Shown: in pieces, positions 4,046 to 63,468 of the stretch
Numbering within the stretch: position 1 is the first letter of the stretch
Layout of the letters: each line of letters starts with the position of its first letter
Assembly (NCBI GenBank): GCA_964016885.1
Contig: OZ024751.1
Location: 7,006,001-7,070,000 of the forward strand
Origin: Eledone cirrhosa
Taxonomy: Eukaryota
Length of the DNA: 64,000 bases
Reading direction: 5' to 3'
Program-made: the position numbers and the translations under genes
Notes under the pieces: model-generated
Database searches by the model: none
The model's input: only the letters and a program-made list of their open reading frames with translations
What the model was told of the DNA's origin: nothing

Positions 4046-5150
4046 CTCTATCGAAAAATCGGCTGTGTTCAGACCTGGAGAGGATTGGGCTCCACCAGGT
4101 TTAAATCTGCCCAAGATACGCCGTATGACGAGCCTCTACCATTCCACAAGGAGGTATGGGATTGTTATCCTTATATTTGATATTAATCAAAACATGAAAG
4201 AATGAAAACAGAAATTTAGAAACTGACTGATTTTTAGTTGGTATCTTTTAGACATACCAATACATAAAGGACACATTTAACAATGTATGTATTTATATTC
4301 TATTTATTGGTGCCTGTAACTACATTTAGGTGACAGAATAGTCAGTAGCACCATATCAAGCTAAAAAATATATGTAAAAATAGAAATAAAAGATTTACGA
4401 AAATATATTGCTGCATATATAAATATCACTTTGCGTACAACTCACCGAGGGAAAAATGTGGAATAGTTACTGAGAGTAGTTTATGGACGCTGCATACATT
4501 TTTATTGTTGTTTAGACCGAGAACAATACGCCGAAGTATATTTACTGTTAGTTAAGAGATAAACCAGATATCATAAGATAATTTTACGCATTCTTGCAGT
4601 ATACGATATTTTATTCGTTCTCCATCGAATTATAAATGAGTTGTATATTGCTGAATAATTGGTTGTGATGGGCAGTATCTTGATCTGTGTTGTGATCCTC
4701 GATAGCATCAACATTGTTTCTAAATTAGATTTTTTTGTTATAGACTTACAATCCGGTATTCCGTATATTTACTAAACATTGCCGTTATCCGCCTATAAAT
4801 GTAATGGTATGCTTGATTAAGTCCGGAATATCTTTAAACAACAAATACTGTCATAGCTTTATGAAACATTGCAGATATTTCTGGAAACCATCAACGAGCA
4901 ATATTGATAGACAGATCGAAGAAAGAATCTCTGCAGAAAACAGAATGTTGCGCAGGTTGGCATAAAATGGACCACATGGTTATGCATGTGTGGTATACAT
5001 ATATATATTAAAATAACAGATTAAAGTTTAAGCAAAGATTCGCTGCCTTCACTCTTAACGGAATCTTCTGAAACTATATATATATATATATATACACATA
5101 CCTCTTTCACGTGTGTGTGTATATGTATGTCTATACCATACTAATTCAAA

Positions 5151-5203
5151 CAGCCTGAAGAGGTCACATCCAAAGATGGCTGTCACTGAAATATATATAG
5201 CAG
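5151..5203 (+). ncRNA. Type I hammerhead ribozyme (5' pLTR)
   Basis: cagc-CTGAAGA-ggtcacatccaaagatggctgtcact-GAAA-tatata-TA-gcag. Palindromic stem III ATATATAT; two mismatches in stems relative to the 3' copy. Confidence 0.75.
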
Positions 5204-5406
5204 TAATAAACGAAGCTAAATTTTAATCATTTGACTTTTATTTAACTTTATTTTACACTACTCCGGAGTAACCAAACCAACCTGCGCACTTCGTCGAGTG
5301 CTCCAGCCTGCATACTGAGGTGTTGGTATACAACCAACATAAACTCAAAATCTATCTAGCTCCCACACGGGTTGAGCGCTCCAAACAGTAGCGGACCTAA
5401 GTCACT

Positions 5407-8074
5407 ATGGATAAACTGGCAACCTTAGCGTCACTGAAGGACATCCCCCTACCTGATAAACGAGAATACACCAGTGATCTCATCAAGAGTACGGACTCCC
5501 CCATCCGTAGGATGAGATGGAAGGCGTTCCACTTCGAAAGAGGAACGCAGAAAACTACCAACACAGAAAACATGGAGTACCTTTTTCAATCAAGGAGGAA
5601 TCCCCCCCCCCCCACAACAGACTAATGGAGGAGTTTGAAAACGAGATGATTAACATCATATCCAACCTCAAATTCTCCGGAAACCCAACCAGAAGTCAGG
5701 AGTACCTCAGACACCTGAGAAACCGGATTACAGTACTTAAAGGGACAACTGGAATACTTGTCCATGCTGACAAAACAAACAACCTCTACAACATGAACAC
5801 TGAACTGTACAATAAGCTAATCCTCAGGGAACTGAGGAAGTGCTACAAAAAAAACACCTGGATTTACCCTGGATGAGATCAATGCCACAGCTTACAGGAT
5901 TATATCCAGAATCGGCATAGAGGACAGGACGGCCCCATACCAACCAAGGGAGCCGCGGCTTACCCTTAAAGACCACAAGTCAAACTTTGAGTCAGACCTC
6001 CATGTGAGACTAATAGCCTCCTCCAGATCTGACCTAGGGATCGTCCGTAAAAGAATACTGGATAGGATTTTGCCCAAGCTTCGGAAGAAAACCAAATTAC
6101 AGCAATGGTCATGCAGAAGAGAAGTAATAGAATGGTTCAAAATACTGTATGAGAAAAGTAGGACCAGCTTTATACAACTGGACATCGCAAGCTCCTCAAT
6201 CTCACCCATAGTACTTAATAGCGATGTCCAATACGGACCTAACCCGAGAGGAGGTGAGCATCATCCACGCCGCAAGAAAGACCTTAATCCGCTTCGATGG
6301 AGACCTTTGGACCAGGAGTGATTGGCCAAATAACTTTGACATCACGATGGGCTCCAGCGACTCAGCGCAGGTAACGGACCTGGTTGGGCTCTACCTGCTG
6401 AAGCAGATAAAAGATGAAATTCTCTGCCTGGGCGGCGGATTATATCGTGACGATGCTCTATTCACAGTACATGACCACAGCACCAATATGTTGGAGGGTA
6501 TGAGGAGGCGTATTCGCCATTTCTTTAAGAACCAGGGGCTCAGCATAGAAATAGACCCAAATAGGAAGGTAGTTAACTTCCTAGACACCACCCTAAACCT
6601 GAACACCGAGCAATACTACCCCTACCACAAGCCCAACGAGAAACTCGTATATGTTAACGCCAAATCAAACCACCCTAGATCCATAACCAAGGCAGTGGTG
6701 AAGAGTGTCTCGGACAGGATCTCCAGCCTGTCCGCAAGTAAGGAAATATTCAACAACCACGCGGAATATTACAACGCAGCTCTAAAGAAGGCGGCACATG
6801 GACAAAATATAACATATAGTCCGAAAAGCCGGGAGGTGGATAGCCCAACAGACACCTACAACCGCGTTGCCAGAGGGGGGAGGGCGAACCCTAGCAATAC
6901 AGGCAGAGCAGAATCAAATAGGCACCATGTACCAGACACCACCACACGGGCGGTGGGGACTAGTGCGCTTGACCACGAGATGGAGCACAATATGAGTAGC
7001 AGTCTCAGGCGTGACGCTAACTACCCCAGGACGGACAACCCCAACCGCAGGACACGTAGGGGGGGGGGGGGAAACGGGCGAACACCCCACGATGGATCTC
7101 CGGGGGCGGACAACAACCATCCCACACATCCGGGCCGCGAAGATAACAAAAAGTATAGAGCTCAAAAGGGAAGCAACAGTGCGGAAACCACCAGCAACCC
7201 AACAAATCTCCAACAAATCACGAAGCCCCCAACCCACACATATCGGAGAAGACACCGACAAATCACGTGGTACAACCCACCCTACTCAGCGGCCCTAAAG
7301 AAAAGCTTGGCCCGATTATTCTTTGGAGCACTTGACAAATGCTTCCCGAGGGACCACAGATACCACAGGATCTTCAACAGACACACTGTGAATCTTTCGT
7401 ATTCCACCACGAGAAATTTGGCCCAACACATAGCTAGCATCAACAGAAGTAGGCTTAAAAACCACACACAACCAGAAGATGGCAATACAAACACTCAGCA
7501 GAACCATGTGAAAGGAGGGAAAGGGGGACCCATAGCCCACCCAAGAAACACAAACAGACCCAAGGACCCCCCACCGAGCATGGGGGAAGACCAACATGTA
7601 ACACATAATGAGAACCCTAATATAGGCACGCAGAGGCCGACCACCCTCTGCAACTGCAGAAACCCCGAATCATGCCCCCTTGGTAATGAATGTCTCAAGA
7701 AGAACCTAGTGTACGGTTGTAGGGTTAAAACCCCCAACTCCGAACACCTCTACATAGGAGACACATCAACGAGCTTTAAGGACCGCTGGTACAACCATCG
7801 CCATTCATTCCAGAAGGAGGCCAAAAGGAAAAGCACAGCTCTCTCCGACCTGATCTGGAAGCTTAAGCTGGACAGGACCCCATACTCTCTGGCCTGGTAC
7901 ATAATCAGGAAAGTACCACCCGATAAAGGGGGATCTTGCATATGCAAACTATGCCTGAACGAGACCCTCGAGATACTAAGAGGTGGAAGCGGCCTGATAA
8001 ACCTCAGAACCGACTTCTTCGGGACATGCAGACACCTTAGAGCCGGGACCTTTCTCAAGATATATGGACAGTAG
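5407..8074 (+). pseudogene. Frameshifted PLE polyprotein: reverse transcriptase + GIY-YIG endonuclease
   Basis: Overlapping ORFs 5407-5625, 5517-5876, 6004-6321 and 6224-8074. Motifs: ADKTNNLY, FDITMGSSDSAQVTDLVG, LYRDD, FLDTTL, YHKP, SNHP, WYNPPY, CNCRNPESC (CxCx5C), LVY..YIG..FKDRWYNH, CKLC, LRTDFFGTCRH. Confidence 0.93.
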
Positions 8075-9285
8075 CAACACAAGAAGATGTGAACTCCCCC
8101 CAAGCTATAGGGACTTCTACAGAACATGAAAACACCTCTCGGCCAGACCTCCCTCAAGCTATATGGGCAATAACAACACCCTAGGTTGTGAACTCCCCTC
8201 AAGCCACAGGGAACAACCCAGGCAGAGCAGACACCATGATAGCCTAGAGATAGAATCGGACACAGCCATAATAATTTGGCCAACATCTATAACACAAACA
8301 CTTTTAATTTACCAGATTTCTGACTTTCAAGTTCCAATCTTAAATCTTGATTTCTCTTTATTAATTTGTTTTTTGTTTTCTGCCCTCTTCACTGTATCAC
8401 CTTATATTTATTTTAAGTTGAGATAGATTATAACACAAACACATTGAATATCTCATCTTAACATCTTGTCTCATATCAATCTATCCAACATATTCTGACC
8501 TTGAGATTGGTTATAGCACACACACACACACTTTATCCTACATTATTTCTCACCTCTCCATATACATTATCATTACTTTTTCACCAATCTCTCATTTACT
8601 CTTTATTCTTCATTCTCTATTTATTTATTTATTTTCAAATTACACAAATTATATTAATTACTTTATTATATTATTTATTTATTTTCTGTTTTCTTCATTT
8701 ATTGCCATATATTTCTTCATATACATGAAATAACCCCCCCCCCCCCCACACACACACACCACTACGATGGTGGCGGGAGGGATGAAGAAAAAACACAAAC
8801 TGGATACTTCTAAATTGTTAGCAGCAGCAAGATATAAGCTGACCACTACAACAACAACAGTACCAAAATAATGGTGGATGTCAAATGTACTGAACAATAG
8901 CAGGCAAAAACACTACAGGGAGCCTCACCCCAGAAAGAATTCTATAGACTTCTGACTGAGGAATGCTCTCAGAACTGAACAATGGGAAGTTTGACACTTT
9001 TTTTGTTATTTTGTTATTTTGTTCCTTTAACACCTTGTCCCTTCTACCATTTTATCAATTTTTAAGCTAAATCCAACAATAACAACACTTAGAATGAGGA
9101 ATGTTCTAATAACTGACCAATGAGAGGAGAAGGGGACCTGTGACACTGAAATTTGTTTGTTTGAATTCATATGACTCCATTTCCCCAGTGAATTAACAAC
9201 CCAACAAGGAACTGGGCATATCAGAGTATTGACAATATCATACACCTAAACAACATATGTACTTGTCTATACCATACTAATTCAA

Positions 9286-9340
9286 ACTGCCTGAAGAGGT
9301 CACAGCCAAAGATGGCTGTCACTGAAATATATATAGCAGT
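9286..9340 (+). ncRNA. Type I hammerhead ribozyme (3' pLTR)
   Basis: actgc-CTGAAGA-ggtcacagcca-aaga-tggctgtcact-GAAA-tatata-TA-gcagt: stem I actgc/gcagt, ~10 bp stem II, palindromic stem III. Confidence 0.88.
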
Positions 9341-9389
9341 AATAAACGAAGCTAAACTTTAATCATTTGACTTTTATTTAACTTTATTT

Positions 9390-9513
<124 letters not shown>

Positions 9514-16332: not shown

Positions 16333-16404
16333 CTGTCTGATGATGACACGACACTCGCACACAGAACAGTGTGTCCAGTGTCGTCATTGAAATATATATC
16401 ACAG
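16333..16404 (+). ncRNA. Type I hammerhead ribozyme with long stem II
   Basis: ctgt-CTGATGA-tgacacgacactcgcacacagaacagtgtgtccagtgtcgtcatt-GAAA-tatata-TC-acag. Palindromic stem III, AUC triplet. Confidence 0.8.
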
Positions 16405-34187: not shown

Positions 34188-34252
<65 letters not shown>

Positions 34253-34258
<6 letters not shown>

Positions 34259-34865
34259 CGTAAAATAAGAAAATTATAAAATTAACTTACTTACTAAAAT
34301 TTCACTCCCAACTAATTTGTTTCTGAAAGGGAATAAACATACTTTCCGAAGAAGTGTACAGAGAAGCCTTTCGTCATCAGGGAAGTCTATTCTCAGCTAA
34401 GTTTCCAGGCAATACGTGGACACTGGGAACTTATACAAAAATAATTCAGTGGATAGAAAAAAGCAAAGCGTGGACTAAATTCCTAGCCATTGAGAAAATC
34501 ACTGCCTACTGCGTCGGTGGCAAATTCAAAAGAATCAATCACGTAACATCGAGGTCAATCAGTGGAAAGTGGTTTGTTAAGAAGACAGCAGCCTGACTGT
34601 TACCATAGCAGCAGTCTTGGCCAATTTTTCTCGACAAATAATTTGGAGATAATTATAAAGAATTAGTATATCTAGTAACATATATATACACACAGATGCA
34701 TACCTATGCTAGCAAATATATATGTTTTGTCTTAGTAACTTTGTGGTTCAATGCATGGGGTTGCAGAACAATAATATGAGAGACGTAAAATAAGAAAATT
34801 ATAAAATTAACTTACTTACTAAAATTTCACTCCCATTTTAGTAAGTAAGTTAATTTTATAATTTA
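34253..34865 (-). mobile_element. Non-coding HHR element, 525 bp monomer plus partial repeat and small inversion; diverged relative of the 563 bp array
   Basis: gagacgtaaaataagaaaa repeated at 34255 and 34780; inversion at 34836-34865. Shares gaatagacttcc-CTGATGA-cg, cagtgtcc.cg.attgcctgga.actta.ctgagaatag and ttgttctgca with the 60404 array; abuts (TA)n. Confidence 0.85.
34304..34386 (-). ncRNA. Type I hammerhead ribozyme
   Basis: acttcc-CTGATGA-c-gaaagg...cctttc-a-GAAA-caaattag-TT-gggagt. Confidence 0.8.
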
Positions 34866-57229: not shown

Positions 57230-60200
57230 CTATTCGAGTGGCGCCGGTAAGGTATTGTCAGCCATTGAAAGGAAATATGGAAAGAATATGTAACAGCACC
57301 AGGGTTAGAACCCCTAGTTAAACTGTCAAGGAGCAGTCTGGTCGTTAGGACTCTGTTGGTTTAGAGTCACAGCGAGTGCCTGTCGATGATGGATCAGCTA
57401 TCTCTGAGACAAATATAAAGAATGCAGTTTTGTCATGCAGAAGAGCCATCAAAATGGGCACTTTGAATGTGAGGACTATTCGGACCCTGGAGAAGAGAGA
57501 GGAGTTAGGACATCTGTTCGAGGAGAGTGGTATACAGATACTTGCGATCCAAGAAGACATGATCCTACACAATGAGCCCGTGAGGAGTGTGATGTTTGGG
57601 AAGATTAATCAGCTCATCACCACATCGGAAGTGAGGAACATTACCAATGCTGCTGTGGAAGGAGTGGGTTTTGTTTTCAGCACAAAAACCAGTCTATTTG
57701 TGAGGGAAATAATACCTGTCTCCCTGCGAATGTTGAGGGTTACTTTCAATGAAAACCCAAGACTGACACTCATCTGAGCCTATAGTCCAACTGAGGGAGA
57801 CAGTGATTTGAGTGCGGAAGATTTCCATGAGGGTGTGTGTAGAGCTGTCAACACCACACAAGCACACAACATCCTGCTTGTTTTGGGGGACTTCAATGCA
57901 CATCAGCGTAAGGAGGGCATTGAAGATCGTTGCTGGTACGTCCATAACAACACCAACCGAAATGGAAGACTACTGAGAGACACCCTGCTGGAGGCGAACT
58001 TGATAGCGACCAACCTAAGGTTTAGGGAGAATCTGGGGAAGATATGGACCTACATCTCAGATATGTACCTGTCCAAGTCCCAGATTGATTTCATTCTGGT
58101 GAGGAAAAAGTGGCGGAATAGGGTTCTGAACACAGAACCATACAACTATTTCAGTACACTGGGTAGTAACCACCGGCTTGTTATGATTGAGGTCCGCGTG
58201 AGCTTAACAAAGAGCAAGGCTCAGCCGCGGAGAGCAATCTATGACTGGGGAGCTTTCAAGGAAGATGATAAGCTACAGGAGAGGTTCACAGTGGAAGTGA
58301 GGAACAGGTTCAGTGCTCTGTGTGGAGAGACAGATGAGAGACAGATTGGATGGACTGAGGAGAGTGTGACGAGGAGGTACGGGCACTTCAACAATGCAGT
58401 GGCGGAAGCAGGTGAGATCCTGGTGCCGAGGAGAAAGAACAAAAGGAAGCACGTCAGCTCTGCAGACCCAAAAGTGTGTGCAGCCAGAGAACACCTGAAA
58501 GCTGCCAAGGACCAATTCTGTGCTGATCCTACGGAAGAGAGGATAGAGATTGTGGAGGTGATGAAGGGAAAACTCTGTACCGCTTACACTGAGGCCAAAG
58601 AGGAAGCACTGATAAAGAAGATCAGAAGTGTGGAGAGAGCGGTTGACAGGTCTGGATGTAAGGAGAGCTAGATTATCATCAACGAGATCATAGGGAGGAA
58701 GAGAAGGTGATCGAGTCAGATCCAGGGAACAGGGACTGAGGATAGGAAGAGGAAATGACTAGACCATTTTAGGACCCTACTAGGAGAATCGCCCTCCACA
58801 GCCTAGAGCACTGGGGAGATCAGGCGGCTGTTTGAAGAACATGATATTGAGACAAAGCCCTTCACCAGAGAGGAGCTTCAGAGAGCCAAGAAGAAGATAA
58901 AGGAGGGCAAGTCTCATGGAGAAGATTGAGAGGCATCAGAGGTGATGAAGAGGTGTGATTTTGATGATATCATCCTGGGGTTCTGTAACCAAGCACTGGA
59001 GAGAGGAGTTTCCCGAATCAGTGGAGGATCAGTAACATCGTCCCAGTGCTACAGAAGGGAGATCTCTCTAACACCAACAGCTACAGGGGGATCTCACTGA
59101 CGTCACTTGTGGCAAATACTCTCAACAGGATGATTCTTAACAGGATCCAGCCTGAAATCGAGAAGAAGCTCAGAGAGGGAAGATCTACCACCAGTCACAT
59201 CCTGATGATGAGGAGGATATTAGAGGGACCTAGAGCAAAGTGCCTTCTTGCGGTCATGGTTTTCATTGACTTTAGGAAATCCTTTGATTCTGTGGACCGT
59301 CACTGCCTAATCAAGATCTTACACGTTTATGGAATCCCCAAAAAGATAGTGGACCTGATATCACTGCTCTACACCAACACCAAAGCCCAAGTAATTACAC
59401 CTGATTGGGTGACAGAGTTCTTTGAAATACTGGCTGGAGATACTTTAGCTCCCTACCTTTTTATCATCGTAGTGGACTATTGTATGCACCTTGCGCTGGA
59501 GAAACACCAGGACTCTGGCTTTACTGTAGCACCGGCCCAGAGCAGGAGAGTAGGCGAAAAAAATATCGGATGCTGAATTTGCCGACGACATAGTTTTGGT
59601 GACAAATACAGTGAAGGAGGCAGAGTATTTGATGCAGGAGGTTGAAACTGTGTCGATGAGTGTGGGGCTCAGAATGAATGAGACTAAAACAAAATAGTTG
59701 GTAGAGAATGTTGAGAAGCCAGAGGGGTTCACTAATGTAGGCGGGAAGCCGCTAGAATTGGTTGAGGACTTCCTGTATTTGGTAGCAAAGATTGGAAATA
59801 CGGAAGATGATGTGGTTAAGTGGAAGAGCAAAGCCTGGGCGGCGTGCCGCAGCTTGAGATCGGTGTGGAAATCAGACCTTCGTAAAGACCTGGATGGGTG
59901 CTACACGAGAATGCTGAGGATGGCTCTGAACATTAATCAGTATACACTGAGGATGAAAATCTCAGAGCTGTATGGGAGCCTCCCAAAAGTTAGCTCAAAA
60001 GTGACTCAGAGGAGACTGTGGTTAGCTGGAGATGCTCACCGAAATCCAGAGTTGACATTGCGCACAGTGCTCCTGTGGGAGCCCCTACATGGAAACACTG
60101 GAATAGTAAGATCAAGGTTAACGTATGTTGATGCCCTAAGGACAGAAACTGGTCTGTTGTAGACGCAGGACATAGCAGCCATAATGAGGGACAGAGACCG

Positions 60201-60247
60201 CTGGAGAGAACTCGTCCATGGATCACGGGAATTTTACCCGCCCTAGA

Positions 60248-60248
<1 letters not shown>
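57230..60248 (+). mobile_element. Near full-length degenerate RTE-type LINE (APE endonuclease + RT pseudogene)
   Basis: GTLNVRT..ILAIQE, LVLGDFNA, SQIDFILV..SNHRLV (APE); KGDLSNTNSYRGISL, FIDFRKSFDSV, GDTLAPYLF, EFADD, EDFLYL (RT). Multiple stops and frameshifts; 3' end at (TA)n. Confidence 0.92.
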
Positions 60249-60287
<39 letters not shown>

Positions 60288-60294
<7 letters not shown>

Positions 60295-63217
60295 TAATTT
60301 AATATATCAACTAACATAAGCGCACAGATGCACGCCCATGCCAGCAAATACACAGGTTATGTCATAGTACCTAGGTGGTTCAATGCAGGAGAATGCAGAA
60401 CAATTGTTCTGCATTCTCCTGCATTGAACCACCTAGGTACTATGACATAACCTGTGTATTTGCTGGCATGGGCGTGCATCTGTGCGCTTATGTTAGTTGA
60501 TATATTAAATTATCTATATTTATCTCCAAATCACTGATTTGTCGAGCAAACTTGTCAAAACCACTTCTAAAAAAATTTTTTTTGGGGTGTTAGTAGGCGT
60601 CAGTCATCTTACCATCCCATTCCTTCTAACTAGCCTCTGTGTCACGTGATTGATTCTTTAGAATCGGCCATTTGACTTGAAGCAGTGAGAATTTCGGTAC
60701 ATTGAATTCAGTCCTCGCAAGCTGTTCGATCTACCGAATTATTATTATTTTTATATGAGCCGCCAGTGTCCGCGCATTGCCTGGAGACTTAACTGAGAAT
60801 AGACTTCCTGATGACGCAATGAATTCTCGACAGTTGGATTACATAACTGTCTTTATCCCATTGCAGAAACTAATTAGTTGGAGTGAAAATTTAAGTAAGA
60901 AAAAAATTTTTTTTTTTTTAAATTTTTTTTAAAGAAATATTTTCTTATTTTACGTCCTTTATATTATTGTTCTGCATTCTCCTGCATTGAACCACCTAGG
61001 TACTATGACATAACCTGTGTATTTGCTGGCATGGGCGTGCATCTGTGCGCTTATGTTAGTTGATATATTAAATTATCTATATTTATCTCCAAATCACTGA
61101 TTTGTCGAGCAAACTTGTCAAAACCACTTCTAAAAAAATTTTTTTTGGGGTGTTAGTAGGCGTCAGTCATCTTACCATCCCATTCCTTCTAACTAGCCTC
61201 TGTGTCACGTGATTGATTCTTTAGAATCGGCCATTTGACTTGAAGCAGTGAGAATTTCGGTACATTGAATTCAGTCCTCGCAAGCTGTTCGATCTACCGA
61301 ATTATTATTATTTTTATATGAGCCGCCAGTGTCCGCGCATTGCCTGGAGACTTAACTGAGAATAGACTTCCTGATGACGCAATGAATTCTCGACAGTTGG
61401 ATTACATAACTGTCTTTATCCCATTGCAGAAACTAATTAGTTGGAGTGAAAATTTAAGTAAGAAAAAAATTTTTTTTTTTTTTTTTTAAATTTTTTTTAA
61501 AGAAATATTTTCTTATTTTACGTCCTTTATATTATTGTTCTGCATTCTCCTGCATTGAACCACCTAGGTACTATGACATAACCTGTGTATTTGCTGGCAT
61601 GGGCGTGCATCTGTGCGCTTATGTTAGTTGATATATTAAATTATCTATATTTATCTCCAAATCACTGATTTGTCGAGCAAACTTGTCAAAACCACTTCTA
61701 AAAAAATTTTTTTTGGGGTGTTAGTAGGCGTCAGTCATCTTACCATCCCATTCCTTCTAACTAGCCTCTGTGTCACGTGATTGATTCTTTAGAATCGGCC
61801 ATTTGACTTGAAGCAGTGAGAATTTCGGTACATTGAATTCAGTCCTCGCAAGCTGTTCGATCTACCGAATTATTATTATTTTTATATGAGCCGCCAGTGT
61901 CCGCGCATTGCCTGGAGACTTAACTGAGAATAGACTTCCTGATGACGCAATGAATTCTCGACAGTTGGATTACATAACTGTCTTTATCCCATTGCAGAAA
62001 CTAATTAGTTGGAGTGAAAATTTAAGTAAGAAAAAAATTTTTTTTTTTAAATTTTTTTTAAAGAAATATTTTCTTATTTTACGTCCTTTATATTATTGTT
62101 CTGCATTCTCCTGCATTGAACCACCTAGGTACTATGACATAACCTGTGTATTTGCTGGCATGGGCGTGCATCTGTGCGCTTATGTTAGTTGATATATTAA
62201 ATTATCTATATTTATCTCCAAATCACTGATTTGTCGAGCAAACTTGTCAAAACCACTTCTAAAAAAATTTTTTTTGGGGTGTTAGTAGGCGTCAGTCATC
62301 TTACCATCCCATTCCTTCTAACTAGCCTCTGTGTCACGTGATTGATTCTTTAGAATCGGCCATTTGACTTGAAGCAGTGAGAATTTCGGTACATTGAATT
62401 CAGTCCTCGCAAGCTGTTCGATCTACCGAATTATTATTATTTTTATATGAGCCGCCAGTGTCCGCGCATTGCCTGGAGACTTAACTGAGAATAGACTTCC
62501 TGATGACGCAATGAATTCTCGACAGTTGGATTACATAACTGTCTTTATCCCATTGCAGAAACTAATTAGTTGGAGTGAAAATTTAAGTAAGAAAAAAATT
62601 TTTTTTTTTTAAATTTTTTTTAAAGAAATATTTTCTTATTTTACGTCCTTTATATTATTGTTCTGCATTCTCCTGCATTGAACCACCTAGGTACTATGAC
62701 ATAACCTGTGTATTTGCTGGCATGGGCGTGCATCTGTGCGCTTATGTTAGTTGATATATTAAATTATCTATATTTATCTCCAAATCACTGATTTGTCGAG
62801 CAAACTTGTCAAAACCACTTCTAAAAAAATTTTTTTTGGGGTGTTAGTAGGCGTCAGTCATCTTACCATCCCATTCCTTCTAACTAGCCTCTGTGTCACG
62901 TGATTGATTCTTTAGAATCGGCCATTTGACTTGAAGCAGTGAGAATTTCGGTACATTGAATTCAGTCCTCGCAAGCTGTTCGATCTACCGAATTATTATT
63001 ATTTTTATATGAGCCGCCAGTGTCCGCGCATTGCCTGGAGACTTAACTGAGAATAGACTTCCTGATGACGCAATGAATTCTCGACAGTTGGATTACATAA
63101 CTGTCTTTATCCCATTGCAGAAACTAATTAGTTGGAGTGAAAATTTAAGTAAGAAAAAAATTTTTTTTTTTTTTTTTTTTAAATTTTTTTTAAAGAAATA
63201 TTTTCTTATTTTACGTC

Positions 63218-63224
<7 letters not shown>
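60288..63224 (+). mobile_element. Five near-identical ~563 bp non-coding HHR monomers in tandem, preceded by a 116 bp spacerless inverted copy: retrozyme-like array
   Basis: Units start at 60404, 60967, 61535, 62096 and 62658 and appear to differ only in poly-T length. Palindrome centre gcagaacaa|ttgttctgc; (TA)n on both flanks. Confidence 0.93.
60803..60884 (+). ncRNA. Type I hammerhead ribozyme (identical copies at 61366-61447, 61934-62015, 62495-62576, 63057-63138)
   Basis: acttc-CTGATGA-c-gcaatg-aattctc-gacagtt-ggattacat-aactgtc-tttatcc-cattgc-a-GAAA-ctaattag-TT-ggagt. Palindromic stem III ACTAATTAGT, GUU triplet. Confidence 0.87.
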
Positions 63225-63263
<39 letters not shown>

Positions 63264-63319: not shown

Positions 63320-63468
63320 TTATGTAGAAGTGGTTACACAACAGTTAGTTCACCTTACCGAGAACAATTGCTTCACCTTAGCCGATCCATTACGAGCTGA
63401 GGCTCCGCTAAGGTGAAACAATTGTTCTCGGTATGGTGAACTACCTGTTGTGTAACAACTTCTATATA
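63320..63468. mobile_element. Small fold-back with a minimal HHR (63393-63430, plus)
   Basis: cgag-CTGAGGC-t-cc-gctaa-gg-t-GAAA-caattg-TT-ctcg. The inverted arm reads ggatc at the same position, implying an ancestral CTGAGGA core. Confidence 0.62.

Follow-up and report, generated by a model that had tools for sequence, protein, structure and literature searches.

Among the described systems closest to the repeat analyzed here are the metazoan non-LTR retrozymes and the EN+ Penelope-like elements (PLEs). A circular template has been proposed (PMC4209133; PMC7229834, accessible text), and copying of retrozymes round such a circle by a Penelope enzyme has been proposed, not demonstrated, in PMC4209133 and in the accessible text of PMC7229834 and PMC7761336. 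On the PLE side, inverted copies with a tail at just one end are already on record (PMC3846280; PMC8557442, accessible part). According to the accessible part of PMC11167929, the Poseidon protein cuts and extends both target strands in vitro, and two internal start sites define the tail; by subtraction from the positions given there, we place these sites about 85-92 nt past the hammerhead cut. In the same in vitro system the hammerhead was dispensable, unprocessed RNA was used, and the start site was the same for both strands. The accessible portions of PMC8557442 and PMC11167929 declare open both the origin of tandem, inverted and tailed PLE insertions and the role of the hammerhead. Our literature search, which lay mostly outside subscription papers and supplements, found no cephalopod retrozyme, no Penelope twin priming and no analysis of two-armed insertions with the A and B ends defined below.

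The repeat lies in a stretch of 64,000 nucleotides of Eledone cirrhosa DNA, here called the window, and its features are collected in Table 1. Five repeat units start at positions 60403, 60966, 61534, 62095 and 62657, with spacings of 563, 568, 561 and 562. The preliminary description of this DNA had called the units near-identical, and there are indeed no substitutions among the five; one T run (11-20 T) is the sole length difference in a range of 561-570 bp. The spacerless 116-bp fold-back that it reported is a perfect palindrome at 60288-60519, and the (TA)n that it saw on both ends was found at 60250-60307 on the left and 63221-63260 on the right. Its statement that the unit is larger than typical animal retrozymes holds in part: going by the accessible text of the two sources, 563 nt exceeds the sizes in PMC7229834 (170-400 nt) but falls within the range given by Li et al. 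2026 (51-972 bp). The unit has no LTR-type layout, and its G+C content of 35% lies within the limit for non-LTR retrozymes (<45%). It is non-coding. The longest ATG ORF inside it has only 37 aa, a tRNA gene was sought in it and none was found, and it has no ORF with the reverse transcriptase and GIY-YIG endonuclease of an autonomous PLE. As a 563-nt circle it folds better than 40 shuffles (circular fold z = -4.1). TRF did not report the array in a tandem-repeat scan of the window because the period is >500.

The left flank is a decayed LINE at 57778-60250 (+) with Pfam RVT_1 and a weak Exo_endo_phos_2. The (TA)n tail of this LINE is the target of the window insertion, and another copy of the same LINE (L188) likewise runs into (TA)n at this point. 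We also observed a splice-donor-like GTAAG at 60896-60900, 17 nt past the predicted cut. At 63320-63465 there is a short element that folds back on itself and has a core resembling that of a hammerhead, with an altered 5′ box and GAAAC-AATT-GTT; a similar piece adjoins locus L060.

Table 1. Features of the insertion and of related elements, in window coordinates
Feature	Position	Strand	Remark
Left (TA)n target	60250..60287	.	At 3′ end of decayed LINE
Short arm (116 bp), made up of the tail segment alone and ending outwards at fixed site B	60288..60403	-	
Central junction of the two arms, head to head with a 2-nt overlap; symmetric, each arm ending at unit position 4	60402..60405	.	
Long arm, 5.0 units in 2,822 bp, ending outwards at fixed site A	60403..63224	+	
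Unit 1, non-coding	60403..60965	+	
Locus-private T, unit position 304	60703..60703	+	All five units
Predicted type I hammerhead of the first unit, with stem I, core, a long stem II that is interrupted, and a 3-bp stem III whose loop is palindromic	60803..60884	+	
Self-complementary A/T-run segment; T-run length varies from unit to unit	60884..60930	+	
Site A, internal copy, 84 nt past predicted cut; terminal copy ends at 63224	60950..60963	+	
Small hairpin directly after A	60969..60992	+	8/8 pairs invariant, 6 variants
Long G-U-rich hairpin directly before B	61017..61068	+	2 pairs changed on both sides
Site B, internal copy, 117 nt past A	61068..61080	+	
Right (TA)n target	63221..63260	.	
Coding Penelope-like element with Hydra-clade motifs; possible mobiliser type	5121..9391	+	
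Sister-family copy, ~525-bp unit, 70% identical, same A and B sites	34250..34865	-	

The window repeat is no local satellite but a single, young insertion of a non-coding element that is abundant in the genome. The unit gave 223 matches at the best 40 scored of 592 candidate loci, with identity up to 99%. The dispersed family that had been postulated is confirmed by the genome-wide count of exact matches to the 3′ half of the hammerhead, 4,189 against 0 in reversed controls. Copies stop in (TA)n at one of two sites, read in the hammerhead sense: A, 84 nt past the predicted cut, or B, 117 nt further. Exact patterns detected 302 A ends and 548 B ends in the genome, and 6,413 internal A junctions when sister families are included; reversed controls gave 0 in each case. 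We examined 99 loci, namely the 40 best-scoring, which are biased to long, young arrays, and 59 from contig C1, where all clusters formed by the first 100 hammerhead matches were taken. In this survey the family spans monomers to multimers, and the unit number varies by locus as had been predicted. Variants shared between neighbours and free array ends, as in a satellite, were not found; the array ends are fixed.

Several individual loci deserve mention. The largest, L033 (G000:C19:16483980-16493010), has about 11 turns in its B arm and 5 turns in its A arm; its T run varies from 14 to 62 across units while the remaining sequence is one haplotype. Older or sister copies directly adjoin the young insertions at L034, L049, L069, L076, L086, L123 and L124, as expected if (TA)n ends get re-used as targets. 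One unit at L104:1938-2184 has an internal deletion (positions ~213-517) by which the hammerhead is lost and A and B are kept.

In most long loci two arms stand head to head. Where a strict pattern called both outer ends, the pair was A+B in all 59 loci (24/24 of the top loci and 35/35 from the unselected C1 stretch). Two-armed loci overall were A+B in 60 of 62, with A+A or B+B in none; the sixtieth (L111) was scored by eye, and the other two (L091 and L121), each with one end at neither A nor B, count against the reading that we prefer. Outward-facing exact end pairs over all of C1 were A+B in 30/30, at loci partly shared with the strict set. Three 'A+A' calls of a loose pattern proved to be internal junctions, not outer ends. 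One-armed copies also exist, with A or B as the sole end. The family thus shows the features that characterize a Penelope-mobilised element, namely an AT-rich or (TA)n target, an inverted 5′ copy and a tail at one end. The fixed 3′ end at TA that had been expected is therefore real in that the ends are fixed and abut TA, but there are two such ends, not one. The start sites of Poseidon show no strand difference in vitro, and thus exclusivity of the A and B kind is not displayed there.

The two arms meet at 57 junctions, a set that includes six from T-run breaks, neighbouring elements or arms cut at the first base of the query. The overlap is 0-4 nt in 31/57; overlap lengths from the loose end pattern, which the A/T palindrome inflates, were excluded. 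Fifty of the 57 junctions are asymmetric. The seven symmetric ones, with that of the window among them, are an enrichment (p = 3e-4), and all seven have one arm under unit length. The fold-back that the preliminary description placed at the 5′ end is present, but it proves to be another arm, a short one whose outer end is fixed in its turn, and its symmetric form is that of the 7/57 only.

Every locus carries one haplotype across all its units and both arms. In 47 loci with sites covered at least three times, 59 substitutions were confined to a single unit, none was partly shared, and 5 were fixed and private relative to 99 of some thousands of loci. The T at unit position 304 of the window, which is absent from the other 98 loci compared, is counted among these five. 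The counts of 59 and 0 agree with the earlier suggestion that one monomer was copied repeatedly. Compared with the 6 nearest loci there are 27 locus-fixed differences, 17 of them seen in both arms. Divergence is 0.13% within arms and 0.16% across arms, and its mean between loci is 5.9%. The singleton substitutions (C>T 14, G>A 10) look post-insertional; therefore the mirror test, in which 0/17 testable singletons recurred in the other arm, has little power. An A>G strand bias, the mark of RNA editing, was not found among fixed (7 vs 4 T>C) or single (4 vs 6) changes. The length of the T run changes at every pass, and the runs of L033 are not mirrored between arms; slippage of long T runs after insertion or during sequencing may contribute as well. 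The predicted cut site is crossed in 297 passes, none of which has an indel at the cut; one substitution and one gap 8 nt away were seen. A pile-up of arm 5′ ends at the hammerhead cut was not found (1/114 within 5 nt).

Each unit likely carries a self-cutting ribozyme, as judged from the following features of its sequence. CTGATGA is present in every window unit, at 60808, 61371, 61939, 62500 and 63062, as is GAAAC, and the palindrome ACTAATTAGT, then GTT, precedes the predicted cut, which is placed after 60879, 61442, 62010, 62571 and 63133 in units 1 to 5. The core does not vary across nine diverse variants taken from this genome, and the extra C after A9 of the core and the A before GAAA are kept in 9/9. 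The alignment of these variants pairs in 91% of cells and has a covariation score of 0.395 against 0.19 when shuffled. One stem II pair shows four pair types, which is the stronger point because related sequences can exceed shuffles. Compensatory changes are contributed by the hammerhead of the sister family (window copy 34250-34865). In the small hairpin after A all 8 pairs are invariant, and therefore it gives no covariation signal. The intact type I hammerhead claimed for each unit thus agrees with motif, GUU site and covariation, 'intact' being meant in the sense of motif and covariation, but Rfam finds no hammerhead family, either at gathering score in the whole window or at E<=10 in 60200-61600, where none of 29 matches is one. 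That Rfam is blind to the motif, and that an extra C and A stand beside the core, count against our reading, as does the failure of 8/9 predicted Xenopus retrozyme dimers to cleave in vitro (Li et al. 2026, accessible text). The microRNA matches given by Rfam reflect the perfect palindrome.

The coding PLE at 5121-9391 belongs to a young family (L161-L180), many copies of which are 98-99% identical. Its intact 892-aa ORF, found in L169, bears RWK, DKT and CxCX5C, the defining motifs of the Hydra clade in the accessible part of PMC8557442, and by these the element would be placed in that clade. A Pfam search of the 892-aa protein gave no match; an Atlas search led to HTH_animal/RVT_1 clusters (reverse transcriptase). 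Site A of the coding element lies 56 nt past its own cut and B 100 nt further, giving a 100-nt tail, and its two-armed copies with both ends seen are A+B in 7/7, which upholds the view that the array has the same insertion signatures as the coding PLEs. A small hairpin after A and a longer one before B are common to the unit and the coding element. The two have no alignable sequence in common; therefore the coding element shows the kind of enzyme, not the partner. Homology to an autonomous partner (pLTR) was found neither in the one coding family compared nor in the flanks of 129 loci, and no ORF continues out of a unit. The sister family (L193-L222; 3,127 candidates) is also A+B in 7/7. Six hammerhead-like motifs with (TA)n within ~50-70 nt, at window positions 16337, 21149 (-), 27888, 36894, 44655 and 54464 (-), are probably ends of other Penelope-type families.

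We consider it probable that the element is a non-LTR retrozyme copied by a Penelope enzyme that primes both target strands on one monomer circle. We lean slightly towards a fuller version, in which tail, head-to-head inversion and tandem repeat would be one event: a dimeric enzyme would prime both strands at two fixed sites of one closed RNA circle, with both active sites rolling up to ~11 turns. The steps that we infer, from transcription, cleavage and ligation to the circle and its protein partner, would run as follows. Existing tandem copies would be transcribed, and their hammerheads would cut out 563-nt monomers, probably acting as dimers because stem III is short and palindromic. A host ligase would close the monomers into a circle. 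A Penelope protein, a predicted dimer in the literature, would nick both strands of (TA)n, and one target 3′ end would prime at A and the other at B. Each reverse transcriptase would roll round the circle with strand displacement for 0.2 to ~11 turns, slipping on the U run, and the two cDNA ends would join via microhomology; a single successful priming would leave a one-armed copy ending at A or B. The window insertion would represent 5.0 turns begun at A and 0.2 turn begun at B. The A+B exclusivity would follow naturally from the presence of a single A and a single B in each monomer. A cut linear monomer would limit the arms to 84 or 201 nt; a circle of one monomer, with one A, one B, many turns and variants fixed in every unit, would account for all patterns.

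Priming at two sites might instead have used an uncleaved linear multimer transcript, with the hammerhead as a passenger and the A+B pairing set by the way in which a dimeric protein sits on neighbouring sites. Poseidon accepts such unprocessed RNA in vitro, the absence of a scar at the cut site fits too, a small set of haplotypes is common to many loci, and for one generation the transcript of a young, homogeneous multimer can pass for a circle. We nevertheless hold this template to be unlikely. Its arms could not outgrow their parent, yet homogeneous arms of 5-11 units occur in several different haplotypes; partly shared (0) and mirrored (0/17) variants are absent, locus-fixed variants are present in both arms, compensatory change conserves the hammerhead pairing, and the 5′ ends do not pile up at the cut. 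Still less probable is that a single priming was followed by fold-back of the cDNA, an idea close to the self-priming of PMC3846280, so that the second arm copied the first and the endonuclease resolved the product at the other fixed site. The enriched symmetric junctions, including that of the window, with one arm shorter than a unit in each, speak for fold-back, but symmetry is also expected if one enzyme meets the other on a circle, and the great number of asymmetric junctions (50/57) and the unmirrored T runs do not fit. Moreover, L033, L050, L055 and L060 are multi-unit in both arms, which pass many A and B sites before ending, and A and B each serve as the sole end of one-armed copies.

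Amplification at the DNA level, by unequal exchange and conversion after insertion of monomers or by copying from a DNA circle, appears very unlikely. Local amplification has been proposed by Li et al. 2026 (10.64898/2026.07.22.740005, accessible text), a DNA circle would likewise yield one haplotype per locus, and the A>G bias that would mark RNA is absent. Against this, stepwise expansion predicts partly shared variants and we saw 0 against 59 single ones; in-register fixed ends, inverted arms and A+B pairing match the coding PLEs, and no terminal repeats of a DNA transposon were seen. That the array is an assembly expansion or a fold-back read artefact is highly improbable. The window units are identical except for their T runs, and the count of five copies is that of the assembly; however, the 99 loci differ in unit number, haplotype and flanks, their arms end at different fixed sites, and units bear their own substitutions. 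Contigs from public runs of one sample, possibly the source, contain the unit, and one loose end shows an inverted junction. Runs X1-X3, which are one sample of unrecorded kind, cover the unit and the neighbouring LINE and are therefore uninformative on expression; X4-X6 gave low-depth pieces.

The value of rolling-circle copying of a retrozyme by a Penelope enzyme as a model lies in the record that this genome keeps. Thousands of young copies record two start sites, strict pairing and a single-monomer template, and an intact 892-aa ORF of the Hydra type with the same end rule occurs in the same genome; therefore the template, the start sites and the candidate enzyme class are specified. If the model is true, rolling-circle reverse transcription would be proved for an animal genome, with the 563-nt element as its minimal substrate in nature, and the Penelope hammerhead would gain a job.

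In L1 twin priming both target strands prime, and inverted arms are joined at short microhomology. The insertions described here are alike in their arms and, in the reading that we prefer, in their priming. They differ in that the second site is fixed, not opportunistic, and in that the arms overlap the same template several times, which is impossible from a linear monomer. The satellite 2 hammerhead repeats of newt and axolotl, as described in the accessible text of PMC7229834, are also tandem, with a weak palindromic helix III and a ribozyme of the dimer type; the window unit is longer than theirs, and its arrays are short, dispersed and two-armed.

The metazoan non-LTR retrozymes (PMC7229834; Li et al. 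2026, accessible text of both) resemble the element more fully. They are non-coding tandem units with one type I hammerhead each, a short palindromic stem III, low G+C (35% here) and a self-paired circular fold, dispersed as monomers to multimers and co-occurring with Penelope-like elements. The two-armed layout, the two fixed ends and the one haplotype per locus are undescribed in the accessible text of these papers, and the words 'inverted' and 'target site' have 0 occurrences in that of PMC7229834. The element also differs from retrozymes by its stem II, which is long, interrupted and accompanied by an extra C and A, and no homologous pLTR was found for it in the one coding family and the flanks compared, whereas 24/57 Xenopus families have one (Li et al. 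2026, accessible text). With the EN+ PLEs (Poseidon of Anolis, PMC11167929; Hydra clade, PMC8557442; accessible parts) it shares (TA)n targets, copies both in tandem and head to head, a tail confined to one end, a start ~84 nt past the hammerhead cut and hairpins at the start sites. In contrast to those elements, going by the same accessible parts, it has no ORF, its tail is 117 nt instead of 30-40 bp, and both arms may hold many full turns. The element class, the non-LTR retrozyme, is thus already known; what this genome adds is a two-armed A+B variant with an unusually clear mechanistic record.
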